DNA of 64,000 nucleotides from an uncultured Duncaniella sp. (lineage in GTDB: Bacteria; Bacteroidota; Bacteroidia; Bacteroidales; Muribaculaceae). Both the position numbers and the translations under genes were made by a program. Shown here in pieces: positions 4,568 through 52,151 of the stretch (position 1 is its first letter; each line of letters begins with the position of its first letter). The stretch spans positions 15,842-79,841 of the forward strand of contig CAJTMJ010000016.1 in assembly GCA_910577335.1 (NCBI GenBank), in the 5' to 3' direction. The notes under the pieces were generated by a model. The model ran no database searches. It saw only the letters and a list, made by a program, of their open reading frames with translations, and was not told where the DNA came from.

Positions 4568-5872
4568 ATGATTTCGTTTTTACGTGTAGGTGCGCTTGTC
4601 CTGACATTGTGCGCATCTCAGATCATAATGGCTCAGGGACATCCTGCCCGAAAGGATAATACCGGCGTGACAGTGTTGAATCACATTGCGGGAGAAAACC
4701 CCGACACAGCCGAGATCCATAAAAAGTTTGTGGAGAATGCCCCTGCTGTCTATAATATACCCGGCGCTCCGAGGTTTGCCATTATCGGTAAGGAGCGTAA
4801 GTTTTATCTTGGTATAGGCGGGACGCTTAAAGCAACAGTGTCGTATGATTGGGGCGACCCTATTGATAATGCTTTTGACTTTACAACTTCTGCCATCCCT
4901 ATGAATCCCCGCAAGGGCGATGACGGGCTTGTGCAGTTTAGCGCTGCAACCAGCGGTATGTTTATCAACTTTGTGGCATTGCCCGGAAATGAAAATCAGG
5001 TCGGGGCATATATTAATTTCAACCTCACCGGTGGAAACGATTATGGCTTTGACTTGCAGTATGCCTACTTGAAGTACAGAGGTATCACAGCCGGTTATAA
5101 TTATAGTCTGTTCTCTGATATGGCGGCTGCCCCTCCAAGCATCGATAACGAAGGTCCGTGTGGTTTCACAGCCATACCCAATGGTGTGCTGGATTACACT
5201 TTGGATATAAATTCTCATTGGAAAGTGGCTGCCGGACTCGAATTGCCTATGGTTTCGGCTACTACAAGCGATAAGAATTATATCGTTAACCAACGTGTCC
5301 CTGATATCCCTGCATACGTTCAGTATTCATGGGGTGGAGGTAGCAGCTGGTTGAGATTCTCGGCTATACTCCGTAACATGCTTTATAGAGATGTCCCGGC
5401 TGACCGTAACAGAGATATGATAGGGTGGGGTATTAAAATGAGCGGAAGCGCTACATTATGCCCTGTGGTCACTACCTACTGGCAAGCAGCCTACGGCAAA
5501 GGTATCACAAGCTATTTCCAAGACCTGTACGAAGGCGGACTTGACATGGTTCCTGATGCAGAGGATAATGGTAAATTGACAACGGTCAAGGCTTGGGGCG
5601 GATATGCAGGTATCCAATACAATATTTCACCGACCGTTTTTATCACTACCACCTATAGCCATTTGCGTAACTATGCTCCGAATTACACCCAAGGCACCAC
5701 ACCATGGGGTGAGCAATACAAATATGCGCAATATGCGCTTGCCAATGTGATGTGGACTATCAAGCCCGGCATACAGTGCGGTCTTGAATACATATATGGC
5801 AGGAGAGTGGATATGTCAGGTGTATCTCACCACGACAATCGTCTGCAGACCATGCTTTGTTTAAGCTTCTAA
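4568..5872 (+). CDS. Putative outer-membrane beta-barrel porin
   Basis: 434-aa ORF with an N-terminal signal peptide (LVLTLCASQIIMAQG). It has many alternating aromatic/Gly-rich strands and a C-terminal ...LCLSF ending in Phe, typical of OMP barrels. It starts 20 nt after the MFS gene. Confidence 0.55.
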   Translation: MISFLRVGALVLTLCASQIIMAQGHPARKDNTGVTVLNHIAGENPDTAEIHKKFVENAPAVYNIPGAPRFAIIGKERKFYLGIGGTLKATVSYDWGDPIDNAFDFTTSAIPMNPRKGDDGLVQFSAATSGMFINFVALPGNENQVGAYINFNLTGGNDYGFDLQYAYLKYRGITAGYNYSLFSDMAAAPPSIDNEGPCGFTAIPNGVLDYTLDINSHWKVAAGLELPMVSATTSDKNYIVNQRVPDIPAYVQYSWGGGSSWLRFSAILRNMLYRDVPADRNRDMIGWGIKMSGSATLCPVVTTYWQAAYGKGITSYFQDLYEGGLDMVPDAEDNGKLTTVKAWGGYAGIQYNISPTVFITTTYSHLRNYAPNYTQGTTPWGEQYKYAQYALANVMWTIKPGIQCGLEYIYGRRVDMSGVSHHDNRLQTMLCLSF

Positions 5873-44359: not shown

Positions 44360-44367
44360 TAACTTTG
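44360..44367 (+). promoter_or_regulatory. Candidate -7 box (TAACTTTG) directly abutting repeat copy 1
   Basis: TAnnTTTG match 4 nt before the repeat start at 44372. The predicted transcript would begin roughly at the element boundary. Confidence 0.4.
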
Positions 44368-44371
44368 CAAT

Positions 44372-44563
44372 GAACTGGTTTAAACTTTTTATAAAATGTT
44401 AAACTCAGACTTAAAATTACCATGTTTTCAATCTTTGAAGCTCTTTTCGGCTGAATTATCAGCATCTCTTCGGTCACTTAGCTCGCTAAGCTCCCTCATC
44501 GAGCTAATAATTCATCTCGAAAATAGCTTCAAATCTTAAAAAATAAAAAGTTTAAACCAGTTC
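44372..44563 (+). repeat. 192-bp inverted-repeat (MITE-like or structured-RNA) element, copy 1
   Basis: The terminal 21 nt are perfect inverted repeats (gaactggtttaaactttttat / ataaaaagtttaaaccagttc). Inner arms also pair (tttgaagctcttttcg / cgaaaatagcttcaaa) and there is an apex palindrome, cttagc-tc-gctaag. A second copy lies at 49502-49693. Confidence 0.7.
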
Positions 44564-44580: not shown

Positions 44581-45060
44581 ATGAGATATTTAAAAATCAT
44601 AACGGTTATCATTTCTATTTTACTTACATGTTTTGATGTGCACTCGGCAGAGCCTAAAGTTAAGGTGAAGCATGTTTTTGATATTCATGCCAAATGCAGT
44701 GAAGCAAGGAACTTAGGTGTGATTCCCGGAGGGTTGCGTGTGATGATTCCGATAGTAGGCGGAAATGTGGAGGGTGATGTGGTAGCCGACATACTTCCCG
44801 GCGGTGCGGATTATCAGTTGGTGGACACAGTGAGTGGAAGAGTGGAATTTAATGCCATTTACACCTTGCGGACTAATGATTCCAAACTTATAAACGTCAG
44901 GAATATAGGTGTTAGCAAGGGGGATTATTTCACAACCTCACCCGTATTCGAGGCTCCGGTTGACTCACAATACGACTGGCTGAACAACAGGATATTTATC
45001 TGCAAGCCTATCGGATTCGGTAACGGAATAGTCCATCTCCGGGTATGGATGGTGGAGTGA
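44581..45060 (+). CDS. DUF3237-family small secreted beta-barrel protein
   Basis: 159-aa ORF with a signal peptide. The pattern IVGGNVEG.....ILPGGADYQ is typical of DUF3237/UPF0311. Recognised from memory only. Confidence 0.55.
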   Translation: MRYLKIITVIISILLTCFDVHSAEPKVKVKHVFDIHAKCSEARNLGVIPGGLRVMIPIVGGNVEGDVVADILPGGADYQLVDTVSGRVEFNAIYTLRTNDSKLINVRNIGVSKGDYFTTSPVFEAPVDSQYDWLNNRIFICKPIGFGNGIVHLRVWMVE

Positions 45061-45069
45061 CTCATGATA

Positions 45070-46767
45070 TCATCCTAAGATTGCCACAATCATGCCTGAA
45101 AGTATGAGCGATATACTCCCCACGGCGTAGGTCACGGTATAGCCCATGACAGGCAATGTGCTTTCAAGATTATCCTGTATGGCTCCGAGAGCAGCTACCG
45201 CATTCCTGCTTCCGGCTACGCACCCAAGTGTGACTGCCGCCGGAAATTTGAACACCTTGTAACCGAGATATATTGATATAATCAGTGGAATCGTAGTGCA
45301 AAGAATCCCTATAAGGAATAATTCAAAGCCTACCTCTTTAAGTCCGCTGATAAATGAGGGTCCGGCTCCAAGACCTACGACGGCTATAAACAGATTCAGA
45401 CCTGCGTTATCCATAAACCATATTACCGAGCGTGGAATATGTCCGAATGTGGGACGTTTAGATCTTAACCATCCCATTATAAGCCCGGCAAGTATTGCTC
45501 CACCGCTTGTGCTCAATGAGATAGGGATTCCTCCGAGATATATTACCAATGCGCCTATGAAACACCCTATCGCAATACCAAGTCCGATGAATACCATGTC
45601 GGTTTCACCTGTCGCTCGATCGGAATAACCGATTTCAGGAACAGCTACCGCTACATCCTGAGGCACTCCTACAAGATGGATTATGTCGCCCTTTTCAAGC
45701 CGCACCTTGTTTCTTACCGGGAGTGCCATTTCATTGCGCAGTATCTTGTGTATCATCACGCCTCGCATAAATGGTTCTTGTTTAAGTTCCCCAACAGAGA
45801 GTCCGGCAGCTCCCGATTTAGATACAGTGACAGGGAGATTCTCTGTGGCGAAATTCAAAAGCTCATGGTCAGTCACTTCGGGACCTATCCATCCGGCTTC
45901 GTCTATTATTGTCTCACGTATACCTCCAAGAACGATAATATCACCTTTTCTTACTTTCAAACCCGGTTCGGGGTCATATATCTCCCCCTTTATCCTGAGA
46001 CGTTCCACGAAATGACGCAGATTTAGACTTTTTATATGTTCTTCAATTTCTTCGACAGTTTTCGATCTTTTGAAATAATCGGCTTCAGCCCTGTATGTTC
46101 GGAATGATATAGGGCGATTGGCTACGATAAGACCGGGGTCGGGTACGAAATCACCGGAGTCCATATCTTCTTCAATTTTCACAGTCTCTTCTTTGACCTT
46201 TTTAAGACCGCCAAGAAGTATGGGACCGAGATTGGCTATAATCCACGCAGACCCGATAGTCCCGAAAATATAACAAACAGCATAGCAAGCCGGAATAATG
46301 TCGAGCATACGTTTTAGCTCTGTGTCGGTATATCCCATAGCGCGAATAGTATCACTTCCCACACCGATGACGGCAGATACAGTTTGAGATCCTGCGAAAA
46401 TACCTACGGTGACACCTTTGCCATATCCCATAAGCTTTGATATGCCGATACACGTTGCTATGCAAAGTGCACATTCGATGAGAGCAAAGCATATCTGCTT
46501 AACTCCGTCTCCTTTTAAAGAACGGAAAAATTGGGGTCCAACGCTGTATCCAATGGCAAAAAGGAACAGCATAAATGCTAATGATTTTACTGTGTCAGAT
46601 ATCGGAATTCCCATTTGTCCTATTATAACACCGACAATCAGTGTCGCTGTCACAGGTCCAAGAGACAGCGATTTATATCTGATTCCTCCAAGCCAAAAGC
46701 CAAGTCCAAGGGTAAGAAAAATAGGTATTACCTGATTGTTGCGAAATATTTCAATAAGCCAGTCCAT
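45070..46767 (-). CDS. AAE-family (aspartate:alanine exchanger / YidE-YbjL type) transporter with two central RCK_C domains
   Basis: 565-aa ORF. Two roughly 5-6-TM halves are separated by about 180 soluble residues carrying two TrkA-C-like repeats (GDIIVLGG..., GDIIHLVG...). Confidence 0.85.
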   Translation of the reverse strand: MDWLIEIFRNNQVIPIFLTLGLGFWLGGIRYKSLSLGPVTATLIVGVIIGQMGIPISDTVKSLAFMLFLFAIGYSVGPQFFRSLKGDGVKQICFALIECALCIATCIGISKLMGYGKGVTVGIFAGSQTVSAVIGVGSDTIRAMGYTDTELKRMLDIIPACYAVCYIFGTIGSAWIIANLGPILLGGLKKVKEETVKIEEDMDSGDFVPDPGLIVANRPISFRTYRAEADYFKRSKTVEEIEEHIKSLNLRHFVERLRIKGEIYDPEPGLKVRKGDIIVLGGIRETIIDEAGWIGPEVTDHELLNFATENLPVTVSKSGAAGLSVGELKQEPFMRGVMIHKILRNEMALPVRNKVRLEKGDIIHLVGVPQDVAVAVPEIGYSDRATGETDMVFIGLGIAIGCFIGALVIYLGGIPISLSTSGGAILAGLIMGWLRSKRPTFGHIPRSVIWFMDNAGLNLFIAVVGLGAGPSFISGLKEVGFELFLIGILCTTIPLIISIYLGYKVFKFPAAVTLGCVAGSRNAVAALGAIQDNLESTLPVMGYTVTYAVGSISLILSGMIVAILG

Positions 46768-46943
46768 ACAGGGAAATTCAGTGAAACGTTAAAATTGTTT
46801 TTTAGTTTAACAATAGTTCGTGATAATTGGTTTAAATAAGTTAAGGACTGAACCTTATATACTAAGGTAATGTTATGAAATCATATAATTTCTAAGAAAT
46901 TAATATGCACTAACGTAAAAAACAATCTAAAAATTTATAGAAT

Positions 46944-48614
46944 ATGAACATGTTTTGTTACCAATGTCAGGAGACGGCTCGTGGCAAAGGATGCGAGATT
47001 CAAGGGGTGTGCGGTAAAAAGCCGGAAACATCATCACGCATGGATCAGCTCTTATATATTGTGCGCGGTATGGCTATATTGAATCGCCTGCTGCGTGAAA
47101 AAGGCTCTGCCGATCGGGACGCTTCACATTTCATTATCGATGCGCTGTTTACCACTATTACAAATGCAAATTTTGATAATGATATGCTTGACGGATATCT
47201 TACCAAAGCTCTTGAATTGAAAAATGTGCTTGAAGGTGTTCTGAAGAAACATAATGTAGGGATTCCCTATATGCCGGAGGTATCCTATCATATATCGAAG
47301 GATAATTATGGTAAACTGGAAGTAGTGGATGCCGGAGGAACTCTCGACCAAGAGATTTTCAGTGTGTTACATGATAAGGATGAGAATATCAGAGGGCTAA
47401 AACAACTTGCCATTTACGGGTGTAAAGGCATGGCTGCGTATGCCCGACATGCCCTTAACCTTGGTTTCGAGGATGAGGATATTTATGCTATCATTGAGAA
47501 TACCCTTGCTGAGATAAGCCGTCCTGATGTTGATGCTAACGAGCTGTTCTCTATTGTGCTTAATGTAGGAGAAGGTGGTGTCAAGGCAATGGCGTTACTT
47601 GACAAAGCTAACACATCGACATTCGGCAATCCGGAAATCACCAATGTTAACATAGGCGTTGGCACTCGTCCGGGCATACTTGTGAGCGGTCATGACTTAA
47701 AGGATCTTGAAGAGTTGCTTGAACAGTCGGCTGGAAAGGGTGTGGATATCTATACCCATTCCGAGATGCTTCCGGCGCAGAGCTATCCGTTTTTCAAGAA
47801 ATATCCTCATTTCGCCGGTAATTATGGCAATGCGTGGTGGAAGCAGATTGATGAATTCGAGACATTTAATGGTATGTTCTTGTTTACATCCAATTGTATA
47901 GTGCCTCCGAGACCCAAGACAACATACATGGATAGAGTCTACACTACCGGTGTTGTAGGTATGCCGGGCACACACCATATTTCCGAAGGCATTGACGGCA
48001 AAAAAGATTTTTCTGAAATCATAGAACGTGCACAGAAATGTGAGCCTCCTACGGAAATCGAACATGGAGAGATAATAACCGGATTTGCTCATAATCAGGT
48101 GATTGCTCTTGCTCCGAAGATTATCGATCTTATAAAACGAGGCAAAATACGTAAATTTGTGGTAATGGCTGGTTGTGACGGCAGAATGCCCTCACGTAAG
48201 TATTATACAGAATTTGCAGAAAAGCTTCCCGAAGATTGCGTGATACTTACTGCAGGATGTGCTAAGTACCGTTATAACAAATTGCCACTCGGTGATATAG
48301 AGGGAGTCCCTCGTGTTCTTGATGCAGGACAGTGTAACGACTCCTATTCCCTTGTGGTAATTGCCATGGCTTTGAAGGAGGCGTTAGGGCTTAAAAATGT
48401 CAATGAATTGCCAATCGTATATAACATAGCTTGGTATGAACAGAAAGCTGTGATAGTGCTTCTTGCGTTGTTGAGCCTGGGAATTCAGAATATACACACA
48501 GGACCGACCCTGCCGGCATTCTTTACTCCTGACATACTCAAGGTGCTTCAGGAGAAATTCAATATCGGTACCATCACCACCGTAGATGAGGATTTGGCAA
48601 AACTTATCGGCTGA
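46944..48614 (+). CDS. hcp: Hydroxylamine reductase / hybrid-cluster protein
   Basis: 556-aa ORF with the N-terminal Cys motif MFCYQCQET...[10 protein letters not shown] and conserved hybrid-cluster ligands downstream. An alternative start is ATG 46950. Confidence 0.95.
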
Positions 48615-48677
48615 TAAAACGTATAGGTTTTGAGAACTATTCAAACTTAACGCATAAATCAGACATAAATAAACAAG

Positions 48678-48720
48678 TGACTCGTAAGGGGAATACAATT
48701 TCTCCGGACGAGTCATTTTT
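48678..48720 (+). terminator. Intrinsic terminator after hcp
   Basis: tgactcgt (48678-48685) pairs with acgagtca (48708-48715), with extra inner pairing. TTTTT follows at 48716-48720. Confidence 0.6.
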
Positions 48721-48763
48721 CATCAAATTGAATTTTTCGCACTCTTTGGGGCTTTCGGGGTAT

Positions 48764-48771
48764 TATCTTTG
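48764..48771 (+). promoter_or_regulatory. Candidate -7 box (TATCTTTG) for the 48852 gene
   Basis: TAnnTTTG match about 80 nt upstream of ATG 48852 and immediately upstream of the 14-bp tandem repeat. Confidence 0.4.
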
Positions 48772-48780
48772 CAATGTGAT

Positions 48781-48822
48781 TAAGAAATCACAAATAAGAA
48801 ATCACAAATAAGAAATCACAAA
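48781..48822 (+). repeat. Perfect 14-bp tandem repeat x3 (TAAGAAATCACAAA)
   Basis: Read directly: three identical back-to-back units at 48781-48794, 48795-48808 and 48809-48822. They lie between the candidate promoter and the start codon. Confidence 0.9.
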
Positions 48823-48851
48823 AAGAATAATAACCCACAAAAACTAATATT

Positions 48852-49469: not shown

Positions 49470-49477
49470 TAAATTTG
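49470..49477 (+). promoter_or_regulatory. Candidate -7 box (TAAATTTG) upstream of repeat copy 2 and PBP1A
   Basis: TAnnTTTG match 25 nt before the repeat start at 49502. Confidence 0.4.
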
Positions 49478-49501
49478 CAATTCGAATTATAATCAGCAAA
49501 A

Positions 49502-49693
49502 GAACTGATTTAAACTTTTTATAAAATGTTAAACTCGGGCTGAAATTTACCATGTTTTCAATCTTTGAAGCTCTTTTCGGCTGAATTATCAGCCTCTCTT
49601 CGGTCACTTAGCTCGCTAAGCTCCCTCATCGAGCTGGTAATTCATCTCGAAAATAGCATCAAATCTTAAAAAATAAAAAGTTTAAGTCAGTTC
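49502..49693 (+). repeat. 192-bp inverted-repeat element, copy 2 (same orientation as copy 1)
   Basis: It has the same length as copy 1. By hand alignment there are 11 substitutions and no indels (about 94% identity). The termini are gaactgatttaaac... / ...gtttaagtcagttc. Confidence 0.7.
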
Positions 49694-49748
49694 AAACAAA
49701 AGAGATATAAGTTAGAACAATCAATCCAAGATAACATAACGATACTTC

Positions 49749-52151
49749 ATGGAACAAATTGATAATAAGCCTGATAAAGCACAAAAAACTAAAAAGCATC
49801 ATCGTGGCATCATAGCAACGATGTGGATTGTGTTTGCCGCAATGATTGTCGGTGTGTTTTTCTTCCTATTCCTTGTCTATAATGGTGTGATAGGCTACAT
49901 GCCGCCTGTCGAGGAATTGAAAAATCCTACCGATCGTTTCGCCTCGGTGCTATATTCGTCAGACGGTAAGGAGATAGGACGTTACTTCTCAGGAACCGGT
50001 AACCGAGTTTATGCCGATTTTGATGAAGTGTCGCAGCATGTGATAGATGCGCTGATATCAACCGAGGATGTGCGTTTTGAGGAACACTCTGGTATTGATA
50101 TGCGAGGTTTAGGACGTGTGTTGTTCAAGACTGTTCTTATGGGTAACAAAAATTCGGGCGGCGGCTCTACACTGACACAGCAGCTTGCCAAGCAGCTCTA
50201 TTCACCCACAAGTTCCGGGCTTATGACACGTGCCATGCAGAAGCCTATCGAGTGGATGATAGCTGTAAAACTCGAACGTTATTACTCAAAGGAGGAGATC
50301 ATAAAAATGTATCTTAACCAGTTCGATTTCCTCTATAACGCTGTGGGTATCAAGAGTGCGGCTCATATATATTTCGGGAAAGCTCCTAAGGATTTGACCA
50401 TCGAGGAAGCTGCCACTTTGGTGGGTATGGTTAAGAATCCTTCATATTATAACCCTGTAAGGCAGAATGAGCGCACCAGACAGCGCCGCAACGTTGTGCT
50501 GCAACAGATGGAGAAGAACGGGAAAATCACCAAAGAAGAGCTTGACAGCCTAAGCGCATTGCCCTTAAAATTAAAATTCCACAGGGTTGACACCAAGGAT
50601 GGCATTGCTCCTTATTTCCGTGAGGAACTTCGACGTATGCTCAGAGCTAAGAAACCGGAGCGTTCAAATTATCGCTCATGGGAGAAGCAGAAGTATGTCG
50701 ATGATTCTATAGCTTGGGAGACAAATCCGCTTTACGGATGGATTGAAAAGAATCCGAAGCCTGATGGTTCAAAATATGACATCTATACCGATGGTCTCAA
50801 GATCTACACCACCATTGACTCCAGAATGCAGAAATATGCCGAAGAAGCGGTGTCGGAGCATCTTGGAGGTGACTTGCAAAAGGCATTTTTCCGTGAAAAA
50901 CGCGGTATAAAAGGTGCCCCTTATACCACCGACCGTGCCGAGCTTTCGGAGATACGTCGCAATCACCTCATAAGAAATGCGATGAAGAACACCGACCGTT
51001 ACCGTGTGATGGTAAAGGCGGGAGCTTCACGTGAGGAGATAAACAAGGCATTCAACACTCCGAGAGAGATGAAGGTGTTCACTTACTCAGGCTCTGTTGA
51101 CACAGTGATGACTCCTCTTGACTCGGTTCTTTACCACAAGCATTTCCTTCGCACAGGATTTATGGCTATGGATCCGCTCAACGGGCATATAAAGGCATAC
51201 GTCGGAGGTCCGAATTTCTCATATTTCCAGTACGACATGGTATCAACCGGTAAGCGTCAGATAGGTTCTACCGTCAAGCCGTTCCTTTACACGTATGCTA
51301 TGGAGGAAGGCTTCACACCTTGCGATGAATTGTCAAATACTCAGCCTGTGCTGACTGATGAAGCAGGGCGAGTATGGGCACCGAGAAATGCCGGAAGTGC
51401 GAGAGTAGGGGAGATGGTGGATCTTAAATGGGCACTTACCAATTCTAACAACTGGATTTCTGCCCGACTTATCTCTCAGCTTTCACCGTCGTCGCTTGTG
51501 AGGACGATGCATAATTTCGGTATCACTTCCGATCTCCCTGCGGTGATGTCGCTTTGCCTCGGACCAGCTGATGTATCGGTCAAGGAGATGGTTACAGCCT
51601 ACTCAGCCTTTGCAAACAATGGTATGAGGGTTGACCCGATGTTTGTCACTGCGATAGCCGATAATAACGGTAACATAATTTCCGAATTTTCACCACGCCA
51701 TGTGGAGGTCATATCGGAGAAGGCATATTACCGTATATTATCCATGCTGCTGAATGTGGTGAACGAGGGTACGGCTCACAGGGTTCGTTCACGTTTCGGC
51801 TTGACTGCGGAGATGGGTGGCAAGACCGGTACCACCAACTATAATGCCGACGGATGGTTTATGGGATTCACCCCTCAGCTTGTGGCTGGCACATGGGTTG
51901 GCGGTGACGAACGTTACATCCACTTCAACACCATGGCTTACGGACAGGGTGCTTCGATGGCTCTCCCGATCTATGGCAGATTTATGAAGAAGGTATATGC
52001 GGATCCGACACTCAACTATTCGCAATCGGCACGATTTGACATCCCCGGAAATGTGAATCTCTGCGAGAAAGAATTTTATGGCTATTATGAGGAGCCTGTC
52101 GATGCTGACACCAATGCCGAGGAATCGTCGATAGAAGGTGTGTTTGATTAG
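49749..52151 (+). CDS. Class A penicillin-binding protein (PBP1A: glycosyltransferase plus transpeptidase)
   Basis: 800-aa ORF with an N-terminal TM anchor, GT51 motifs (EDVRFEEHSGID, GGSTLTQQ) and transpeptidase motifs (STVKP, SNN, KTGT). Confidence 0.95.
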   Translation: MEQIDNKPDKAQKTKKHHRGIIATMWIVFAAMIVGVFFFLFLVYNGVIGYMPPVEELKNPTDRFASVLYSSDGKEIGRYFSGTGNRVYADFDEVSQHVIDALISTEDVRFEEHSGIDMRGLGRVLFKTVLMGNKNSGGGSTLTQQLAKQLYSPTSSGLMTRAMQKPIEWMIAVKLERYYSKEEIIKMYLNQFDFLYNAVGIKSAAHIYFGKAPKDLTIEEAATLVGMVKNPSYYNPVRQNERTRQRRNVVLQQMEKNGKITKEELDSLSALPLKLKFHRVDTKDGIAPYFREELRRMLRAKKPERSNYRSWEKQKYVDDSIAWETNPLYGWIEKNPKPDGSKYDIYTDGLKIYTTIDSRMQKYAEEAVSEHLGGDLQKAFFREKRGIKGAPYTTDRAELSEIRRNHLIRNAMKNTDRYRVMVKAGASREEINKAFNTPREMKVFTYSGSVDTVMTPLDSVLYHKHFLRTGFMAMDPLNGHIKAYVGGPNFSYFQYDMVSTGKRQIGSTVKPFLYTYAMEEGFTPCDELSNTQPVLTDEAGRVWAPRNAGSARVGEMVDLKWALTNSNNWISARLISQLSPSSLVRTMHNFGITSDLPAVMSLCLGPADVSVKEMVTAYSAFANNGMRVDPMFVTAIADNNGNIISEFSPRHVEVISEKAYYRILSMLLNVVNEGTAHRVRSRFGLTAEMGGKTGTTNYNADGWFMGFTPQLVAGTWVGGDERYIHFNTMAYGQGASMALPIYGRFMKKVYADPTLNYSQSARFDIPGNVNLCEKEFYGYYEEPVDADTNAEESSIEGVFD

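Follow-up and report, generated by a model that had tools for sequence, protein, structure and literature searches.

A 192-bp hairpin repeat ahead of two genes of an uncultured Duncaniella sp. is very probably a miniature transposable element of IS5-family lineage

Comparison with described elements

BrickBuilt, MITE239, MITE293, MITE464 and MITE700 of Porphyromonas gingivalis and ATR of Neisseria are MITEs (miniature inverted-repeat transposable elements) related to the IS5 family of insertion sequences (PMC4596501). They are the closest described elements to a 192-bp repeat which occurs twice, each time upstream of a gene, in a 64,000-nucleotide stretch of DNA (the window; contig CAJTMJ010000016.1) from an uncultured Duncaniella sp. 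Like the P. gingivalis MITEs and ATR, the 192-nt family is short, AT-rich, non-coding and intergenic, is present in about 10–20 copies per genome, possesses terminal inverted repeats (TIRs) that start with GAG or GAA, and is tied to IS5-family insertion sequences of the same organism group (PMC4596501), but it shows no sequence similarity to them. BrickBuilt contains an internal minisatellite and irregular duplications (PMC4596501), whereas duplications in the 192-nt family are a regular 3 bp and its long hairpin has a conserved apex which is also found at both ends of a putative autonomous relative. The elements are of the same kind and differ in internal content. Full-text literature searches returned no description of this family or of any Muribaculaceae MITE, and the Bacteroidales MITEs that they did return were those of P. 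gingivalis only.

Within the IS5 family, members of the IS427, IS1031 and ISL2 subgroups are 800–1000 bp long and typically generate duplications of 2–4 bp; no citable table of IS5 subgroup duplication lengths was found in the literature. The relative of the 192-nt family (in L001 and L012; such labels denote retrieved loci, and coordinates after a label are those within that locus) resembles these elements in exceeding the NF033580 cut-off, in its two-part transposase frame, in TIRs that begin with GG or GA, and in a 3-bp T(A/T)A duplication. At 1263 bp the L001 element is nonetheless larger, the extra length being largely its structured ends of about 165 nt with hairpin modules of about 90 nt. 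To our knowledge, hairpin modules have not been described at the ends of IS5 elements.

The Correia elements of Neisseria and the ERIC/IRU elements of enterobacteria are, like the 192-nt family, nearly palindromic intergenic repeats of 100–190 bp with a conserved central region. They are often co-transcribed with adjoining genes and fold into long RNA hairpins. Correia elements have TIRs of about 26 bp, duplicate TA and undergo RNase III processing of their co-transcripts; no autonomous parent is known for them. The 192-nt family duplicates 3 bp and not TA, and has no sequence relationship to Correia or ERIC/IRU elements, but when transcribed it may, by analogy, behave like Correia or ERIC. 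Among eukaryotes, Tourist-like MITEs and PIF-Harbinger elements also show a 3-bp duplication, T(A/T)A, with a preference for AT-rich sites near genes, and the PIF-Harbinger transposase is distantly related to the IS5 family; the 192-nt family differs from these TWA elements in duplicating A(A/T)T or AAA. It is also unlike REP/REPIN sequences, which depend on RAYT/HUH enzymes and have neither TIRs nor target-site duplications (TSDs), since it possesses TIRs, a 3-bp TSD and a relative encoding a DDE transposase.

The 192-bp family, its insertion sites and its IS5-family relative

The 192-bp unit is very probably a MITE of the IS5-family lineage, with a hairpin inherited from its parent and not selected to regulate the host genes beside it. 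The following features of a MITE were seen: a length of 192 bp, within the range of about 50–1000 bp, lack of coding capacity, TIRs, a 3-bp TSD, dispersed copies, and polymorphism between filled and empty sites.

The two copies (Table 1) are in the same orientation and differ by 11 substitutions, at element positions 7, 36, 38, 41, 45, 93, 135, 136, 157, 185 and 186, with no indels over 192 nt. Both had been recognised in an earlier reading of the window made from its letters without database searches (the sequence-only reading), and their lengths, positions and differences were reproduced exactly. No third copy or fragment of the unit is present within the 64-kb window. In each unit two 21-bp TIRs enclose a spacer of about 40 nt followed by a single hairpin module of about 100 nt. 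Copy 1 and the family consensus (GAACTGATTTAAACTTTTTAT) have perfect 21-nt TIRs; in copy 2 one T-G leaves 20 of the 21 positions paired. Neither copy contains an open reading frame (ORF) of 60 amino acids (AA) or more. Folding gave −58.2 kcal/mol for the plus strand (z = −9.9) and −76.6 kcal/mol for the minus strand (z = −11.0), and in neither case did any of 200 shuffled sequences fold as well. Both strands form one long imperfect hairpin, in which about 40 nt are unpaired on the left and about 9 nt on the right; the single hairpin with perfect terminal repeats and an asymmetric left-arm bulge, put at about 30 nt in the sequence-only reading, is therefore borne out.

Related sequences were retrieved with two probes. 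The exact apex 20-mer CACTTAGCTCGCTAAGCTCC (44475–44494), searched against species-representative genomes, gave 86 matching stretches in about 28 Bacteroidota genome bins, nearly all of them of Muribaculaceae type and some under other labels. One marine Saprospiraceae bin holds at least 10 copies with this 20-mer. The matches resemble the window element over the central 30–40 nt only, the arms and ends varying by subfamily, and many are located at contig ends, as expected since repeats break assemblies. A match in L083 (Mariniphaga) lies within a 490-AA ORF and was taken to be due to chance. The subfamily-specific 20-mer CGCTAAGCTCCCTCATCGAG, searched against metagenomes, gave 18 loci, 17 of which are in one assembly at about 55x coverage.

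The 192-nt family comprises 17 full-length copies, including both in the window. The 15 further ones, mostly from one metagenome-assembled genome, are 89–98% identical to copy 1, lie at intergenic sites that are all different, and have sharp ends at GAACTGATTTAAAC...GTTTAAATCAGTTC (GAACTG...CAGTTC termini). The same loci contain truncated copies, solo TIRs and two 40-nt TIR-TIR mini-elements, which are decay products typical of transposons. The mini-elements (L115:2124-2163 and L121:8747-8786) consist of two TIRs back to back, both just upstream of genes, and one of them shows a TAT/TAT duplication; they could be extreme deletion derivatives or products of excision and repair. No match to the element, its TIR or its core was found in plasmids, phages or viral contigs.

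The PBP1A encoded in the window shares 89% identity with a protein filed under 'uncultured Duncaniella sp.', its other close matches being named Muribaculaceae. Several records with Muribaculaceae-type sequences (L013, L041, L049, L051 (CAZUEY01), P0003, P0049 and P0062) are labelled Staphylococcus, Paenibacillus, Lachnoclostridium or Clostridium, and these are probably taxonomic mislabels of metagenome bins. A sister MITE of about 340 nt, subfamily A (L005, L008, L019 and others), is bounded by 35-nt TIRs (GAGCCTGTTTCAT...) and contains GTGCTTAAAAGGGCGTGTGGCGAGCCACATAACCGTTAAGCAC as a second internal hairpin. Bin HGM05289 holds at least 14 copies of it; an internally deleted copy (L003:5845-6105) lies between trpF and trpA. 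The conserved sequence upstream in subfamily A was considered as the C-terminus of a gene, which was rejected since it is part of this non-coding MITE with its 35-nt TIRs.

An exact 3-bp direct duplication flanks 10 of 19 elements, against a rate of 0.117 in a control in which left and right flanks of different copies were paired (binomial p = 1.6e-5). At 2, 4 or 5 bp the same 19 elements showed no enrichment. The duplicated triplets are AAT, ATT, AAA, AGT and TAT. The left flank is AAT in 7 of the 19 elements, even where the right flank differs.

In a close relative (loci L122, L123 and L124), in which the flanking genes are about 95–97% identical, neither window insertion is present. At the copy 2 site the empty sequence ...ATCAGCAAAA|CAAAAGAG... 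corresponds to the filled sequence ...ATCAGCAAAA[192 nt]AAACAAAAGAG..., and the filled site exceeds the empty one (L122) by exactly 195 nt, that is, 192 nt and the duplicated AAA. The copy 1 site reads ...AACTTTGC|GAAAAAAATTGG when empty and ...AACTTTGCAAT[192 nt]GAAAAAAAATTGG when filled. More distant relatives (PBP1A 85–93% identical) also have no element upstream of PBP1A. Both window copies are recent insertions that are absent from the close relative, and vertical inheritance at fixed orthologous sites is contradicted for both sites. The survey of copy number, empty sites and target duplications that the sequence-only reading had proposed thus came out in favour of its MITE alternative, with 17 full-length copies in place of two, both sites empty in L122–L124 and the 3-bp TSD in 10 of 19, beside sharp ends, TIRs, decayed copies and an IS5-family autonomous relative.

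This relative emerged when all retrieved loci were scanned for inverted repeat pairs 0.5–4 kb apart. L001:2789-4051 is a 1263-bp element with perfect 35-bp TIRs and a TAA duplication, and has a 1262-bp twin in L012. Its transposase contains DUF4096 and DDE_Tnp_1 (Pfam) domains and scores 114.2 bits against NCBIfam NF033580 (cut-off 110). Judged by its sequence, it is an IS5-family, transposase-encoding (autonomous) relative of the 192-nt MITE. Duplications of TAA/TAA or TTA/TTA flank 5 of 5 copies of the L001-type element, and internally deleted derivatives of 726–989 bp are present in other genomes. Each end carries, just inside the TIR, a hairpin module of about 90 nt with the conserved core at its apex, the two being in inverted orientation: the apex is GTCACTTAGCTCGCTAAGCTCC at the right end and, at the left, GGAGCATAGCGAGCTATGTGAC, which is nearly its reverse complement. 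Over about 165 nt the two ends repeat each other in inverted orientation. The spacer of the 192-nt unit contains AAAATTACCATG, which by eye resembles AAGTTACCTATG just 5' of the right-end module.

The transposase frame is interrupted at L001:3238-3240 by an in-frame TAA, between ...KDMPLD and MGITLECV..., as also in L012 and L041. The position of this codon is shared by copies from two or more different genome bins, while L031 reads through (PLEEPGISLECV); it could represent an inherited defect or programmed readthrough. A guide RNA of the TnpB/IscB kind or a retron-like RNA was considered and rejected, the conserved upstream sequence being an IS5-family DDE transposase gene with TIRs and TSD.

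The layout of the window element is the shape expected of a deletion derivative that joins the left end of such an element to the right end, and the unit would have originated in this way from an IS5-family insertion sequence. Its insertions lie in AT-rich intergenic triplets, mostly A(A/T)T or AAA, with the 3-bp duplication. We infer that an IS5-family DDE transposase (DUF4096 and DDE_Tnp_1, of the NF033580 type), encoded elsewhere in the genome, moves the MITE in trans through binding to its terminal repeats. Copy 1 would have landed between the −7 box and the native transcription start of the DUF3237 gene, and copy 2 about 24 nt downstream of the −7 box of PBP1A. The hairpin is probably a cis-acting part of the transposon's own biology, for example one to which transposase or a host factor binds, or one that acts as a barrier or terminator for transcripts crossing the ends.

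Genes and promoters around the copies

All 19 copies examined are intergenic. Relative to the adjoining genes, the copies in tandem contexts are oriented in the same direction in five cases and in the opposite direction in six; four contexts are divergent and two convergent. Among the 17 full copies, five have an exact TAnnTTTG box on one side and an ATG on the other, with gaps of 4, 24, 4, 16 and 21 nt to the box, six lie upstream of a box, four have no exact box, and two face the 3' ends of genes only. The 192-nt element itself has no exact TAnnTTTG box on either strand. The promoter-proximal targeting suggested in the sequence-only reading consequently stands to the extent that every copy is intergenic and many are near such boxes, but only the five occupy the position between box and start codon. 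These positions fit insertion that favours A(A/T)T triplets within AT-rich DNA between genes, most of which, in this phylum, consists of promoters and leaders.

Table 1. Features of the two 192-bp copies and of their surroundings in the window
Feature	Coordinates	Strand	Remarks
−7 promoter box, Bacteroidota type (TAACTTTG)	44360..44367	+	4-nt gap to copy 1
MITE copy 1 (192 bp)	44372..44563	+	between TAACTTTG box and DUF3237 start codon; site empty in L122, L123, L124
Left TIR of copy 1 (GAACTGGTTTAAACTTTTTAT)	44372..44392	+	inverted repeat of 44543-44563, perfect over 21 nt
Inner hairpin module of copy 1	44434..44532	+	homologous, from fold and cross-subfamily covariation, to the subterminal hairpin that the related IS5-family element has at each end
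Conserved apex core of copy 1 (GTCACTTAGCTCGCTAAGCTCC)	44473..44494	+	mini-hairpin CTTAG-CTCG-CTAAG
Right TIR of copy 1	44543..44563	+	pairs with left TIR
DUF3237 gene downstream of copy 1	44581..45060	+	PF11578
−7 promoter box (TAAATTTG)	49470..49477	+	24-nt gap to copy 2
Left TSD copy (AAA) of copy 2	49499..49501	+	
MITE copy 2 (192 bp)	49502..49693	+	in presumed 5' leader of PBP1A gene; L122 site empty
Conserved apex core of copy 2	49603..49624	+	
Right TSD copy (AAA) of copy 2	49694..49696	+	
Class A penicillin-binding protein gene (PBP1A) downstream of copy 2	49749..52151	+	PF00912, PF00905

The start codons downstream of the two copies are at 44581 (DUF3237) and 49749 (PBP1A), as read earlier from the letters; of the distances to the boxes given there, that of 4 nt for copy 1 is correct and that of 25 nt for copy 2 is 24 nt, a counting difference. 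In the empty DUF3237 site the TAACTTTG box is followed by 21 nt and then the ATG, and the element was inserted one base after the box; therefore DUF3237 transcripts from this promoter would begin within the left TIR or beside it and include the hairpin in full. In the empty PBP1A site about 79 nt follow the box, and the element was inserted 24 nt after it. From the architecture of the empty sites, both genes probably now carry the hairpin as a long structured 5' leader. The proteins flanking the filled alleles are indexed in 375–468 blocks of public assemblies, and every contig examined has the element. Filled alleles are therefore common, which indicates that the insertions are tolerated.

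Two other loci place members of these families near riboswitches. L006 (bin UMGS400) contains a SAM-II riboswitch (RF01726, 58 bits) at 5093-5152, a sister-subfamily MITE of about 194 nt at 5294-5487, and a gene start at 5507. The product of this gene begins MNHFFTSESVSEGHPDKV and looks like MetK, and the MITE is an insertion inside a riboswitch-controlled leader. L116 has a thiamine pyrophosphate (TPP) riboswitch (RF00059, 67 bits, minus strand) at 4990-5088 and a 192-nt MITE at 5171-5362, 83 nt away and further upstream.

Between the two copies the window (45061-48851) and L122 (6480-6577) differ by an indel of about 3.7 kb, the ends of which do not coincide with those of the MITEs. The window-only genes, located between the DUF3237 gene and a 177-AA ORF, specify an Asp-Al_Ex transporter (45070-46767, minus strand) and a Prismane/hcp protein (46944-48614, plus strand), neither of which is present at that place in L122. 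An unrelated direct repeat of 2 x 134 nt (76% identical, 1243 nt apart) occupies positions 4-137 and 1247-1380 of the window.

Constraint on the hairpin and rival explanations

The sequence-only reading had drawn attention to changes between the copies that keep the pairing, and those it named are all present: G7/C186 in one copy against A7/T186 in the other, A185G giving T-G, and AA to GG at 135-136. The consensus of the 17 copies is A7/T186, and G7-C186 of copy 1 is therefore the derived pair; AA, GG and GA at 135-136 are lineage variants common to several copies. Two compensated pairs were found within the 192-nt family, G7-C186 (one event, seen in window copy 1 and in a strain variant) and 69/156, against about 15 broken cells, together with several one-sided wobbles, and the RNAalifold covariation term is −0.01. 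The earlier view that wobble-tolerant covariation favours selection at the RNA level finds no support in these counts or in the random orientation. Minor-allele cells per column number 0.16 in the TIRs, 0.33 in the paired inner stem, 0.82 in the spacer and 0.91 in the loops.

Across subfamilies the picture is different. In an alignment of 15 hairpin modules, including both ends of the insertion sequence, compensatory changes occur in 14 of 21 predicted pairs, and 89.2% of the cells are paired as compared with 71.5% in shuffles (0 of 500 shuffles reach the observed value). When the partner is slid by 1–3 columns, 31–57% of the cells are paired. The pair flanking the core is A-U in seven sequences and G-C in six, and the apex mini-hairpin CTTAG/CTAAG becomes CATAG/CTATG in the left end of the insertion sequence. 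The alignment indicates that the folded structure is conserved in this transposon lineage. Counts of G-U and A-C are similar, with no clear strand asymmetry, which together with the random orientation means that neither strand nor molecule (RNA or DNA) is indicated. Template switching within palindromes can copy changes from arm to arm without selection; the non-palindromic apex would not be preserved by it. The module with its invariant 22-nt apex is kept in all MITE derivatives, from gut Muribaculaceae to the marine Saprospiraceae genome. We tentatively propose, as a possibility on which we would not rely, that this module of about 90–100 nt might be an essential, structure-specific cis element of the lineage, which the transposase or some conserved host factor recognises in folded, single-stranded form, whether as DNA or as RNA. 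Such recognition, if true, would be a requirement not described for IS5-family (DDE) elements, and would explain how covarying arms go with drifting terminal repeats.

No Rfam family matched the window at gathering thresholds, nor did any gathering-threshold match overlap an element in 15 related loci; the E-value scan of the element gave chance-level matches only (E > 1), among which RAGATH-34 (E = 2.7) was dismissed as chance. A known RNA family and a repeat confined to two copies were among the outcomes that would have spoken against the sequence-only reading, and what was found is no Rfam match and the 15 further full-length copies described above.

Several observations weigh against an IS5-lineage MITE with a merely inherited hairpin. 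An exact TSD is absent from 9 of 19 elements, copy 1 among those without a clean one: its filled site is 196 nt longer than the empty site, its flanks are AAT on the left and GAA on the right, and the AAT (44369-44371) is absent from the empty site. From these junctions the AAT triplet may have travelled with the element, or the copy 1 junction may have been altered later. The family is linked to the IS5-type element by the hairpin module and core that both possess, by a common AAGTTACC-like motif (compared by eye) on the 5' side of the module and by the 3-bp duplication, and not by matching TIRs, those of the L001-type element (GGCCCCGACTCAT...) differing from the GAACTGATTTAAAC ends of the 192-nt family. 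No transposase-encoding element with the family's own TIRs was found in the sequence retrieved, either among inverted pairs 0.5–4 kb apart or by tblastn with the transposase. The window contains no transposase homologue, as the sequence-only reading had correctly noted, and none was found in about 185 kb around the other copies. Lastly, the strong covariation of the arms across subfamilies and the invariant 22-nt apex point to some constraint on the structure.

It is very unlikely that the unit is a selected cis-regulatory RNA leader or a small-RNA module, with the hairpin kept to control the downstream gene at the RNA level. Both window copies, and 5 of 17 overall, do lie between a TAnnTTTG box and an ATG, but orientation is random (five same, six opposite), two copies are between convergent genes and six upstream of the box, the adjoining genes are unrelated, and the element brings no such box of its own on either strand. 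A few substitutions preserve pairing and paired columns vary less (0.33 vs 0.82–0.91 minor-allele cells per column), yet covariation within the family is essentially zero; where it is strong, across subfamilies, the same module is found at both ends of a transposase-encoding element. The very stable fold has no Rfam match, and sites that are empty in the close relative, the TSD and the decayed fragments are at odds with a maintained regulatory module. It is exceedingly improbable that the unit belongs with REP/REPIN-like or IS200/IS605-type hairpin elements, which an HUH enzyme (RAYT or TnpA) recognises by the hairpin and mobilises in the form of single-stranded DNA. Arms that covary around a sequence-invariant apex in a long hairpin are what recognition of a single-stranded hairpin would lead one to expect, but perfect TIRs of 21–35 bp and a 3-bp TSD are hallmarks of DDE transposition, the sole associated protein is an IS5-family DDE transposase, and no HUH gene was seen adjoining any copy.

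A third explanation is compatible with a MITE of IS5-family lineage and supposes that some insertions, including those in the window, have been co-opted, so that the transcribed hairpin alters mRNA stability, processing (e.g. by RNase III) or translation of the downstream gene, in the manner reported of Correia and ERIC elements. The locations suit it, copy 1 being directly after the −7 box and before the native start region and copy 2 inside a native leader of about 79 nt. The abundance of filled alleles in public assemblies (375–468 blocks) may be cited in its favour as well, but being common shows toleration only, and other insertions of the family lie upstream of promoters or between convergent genes. 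We consider such co-option unlikely, though it deserves to be kept in mind.

The IS5-lineage MITE remains the preferred interpretation, and target duplications and empty sites offer a quick way to resolve structured repeats of this kind, located between promoter and start codon. Only the conserved, covarying hairpin module that the IS5-type parent has at each end goes beyond routine. Little has been described of the mobile DNA of Muribaculaceae, a dominant mouse-gut family. Recognising this MITE family explains many contig breaks in metagenome-assembled genomes, and its filled and empty sites provide a marker for strain typing. It also flags hairpin insertions of about 190 nt in gene leaders, as in that of PBP1A and, in a different species, in the stretch from a SAM-II riboswitch to metK.

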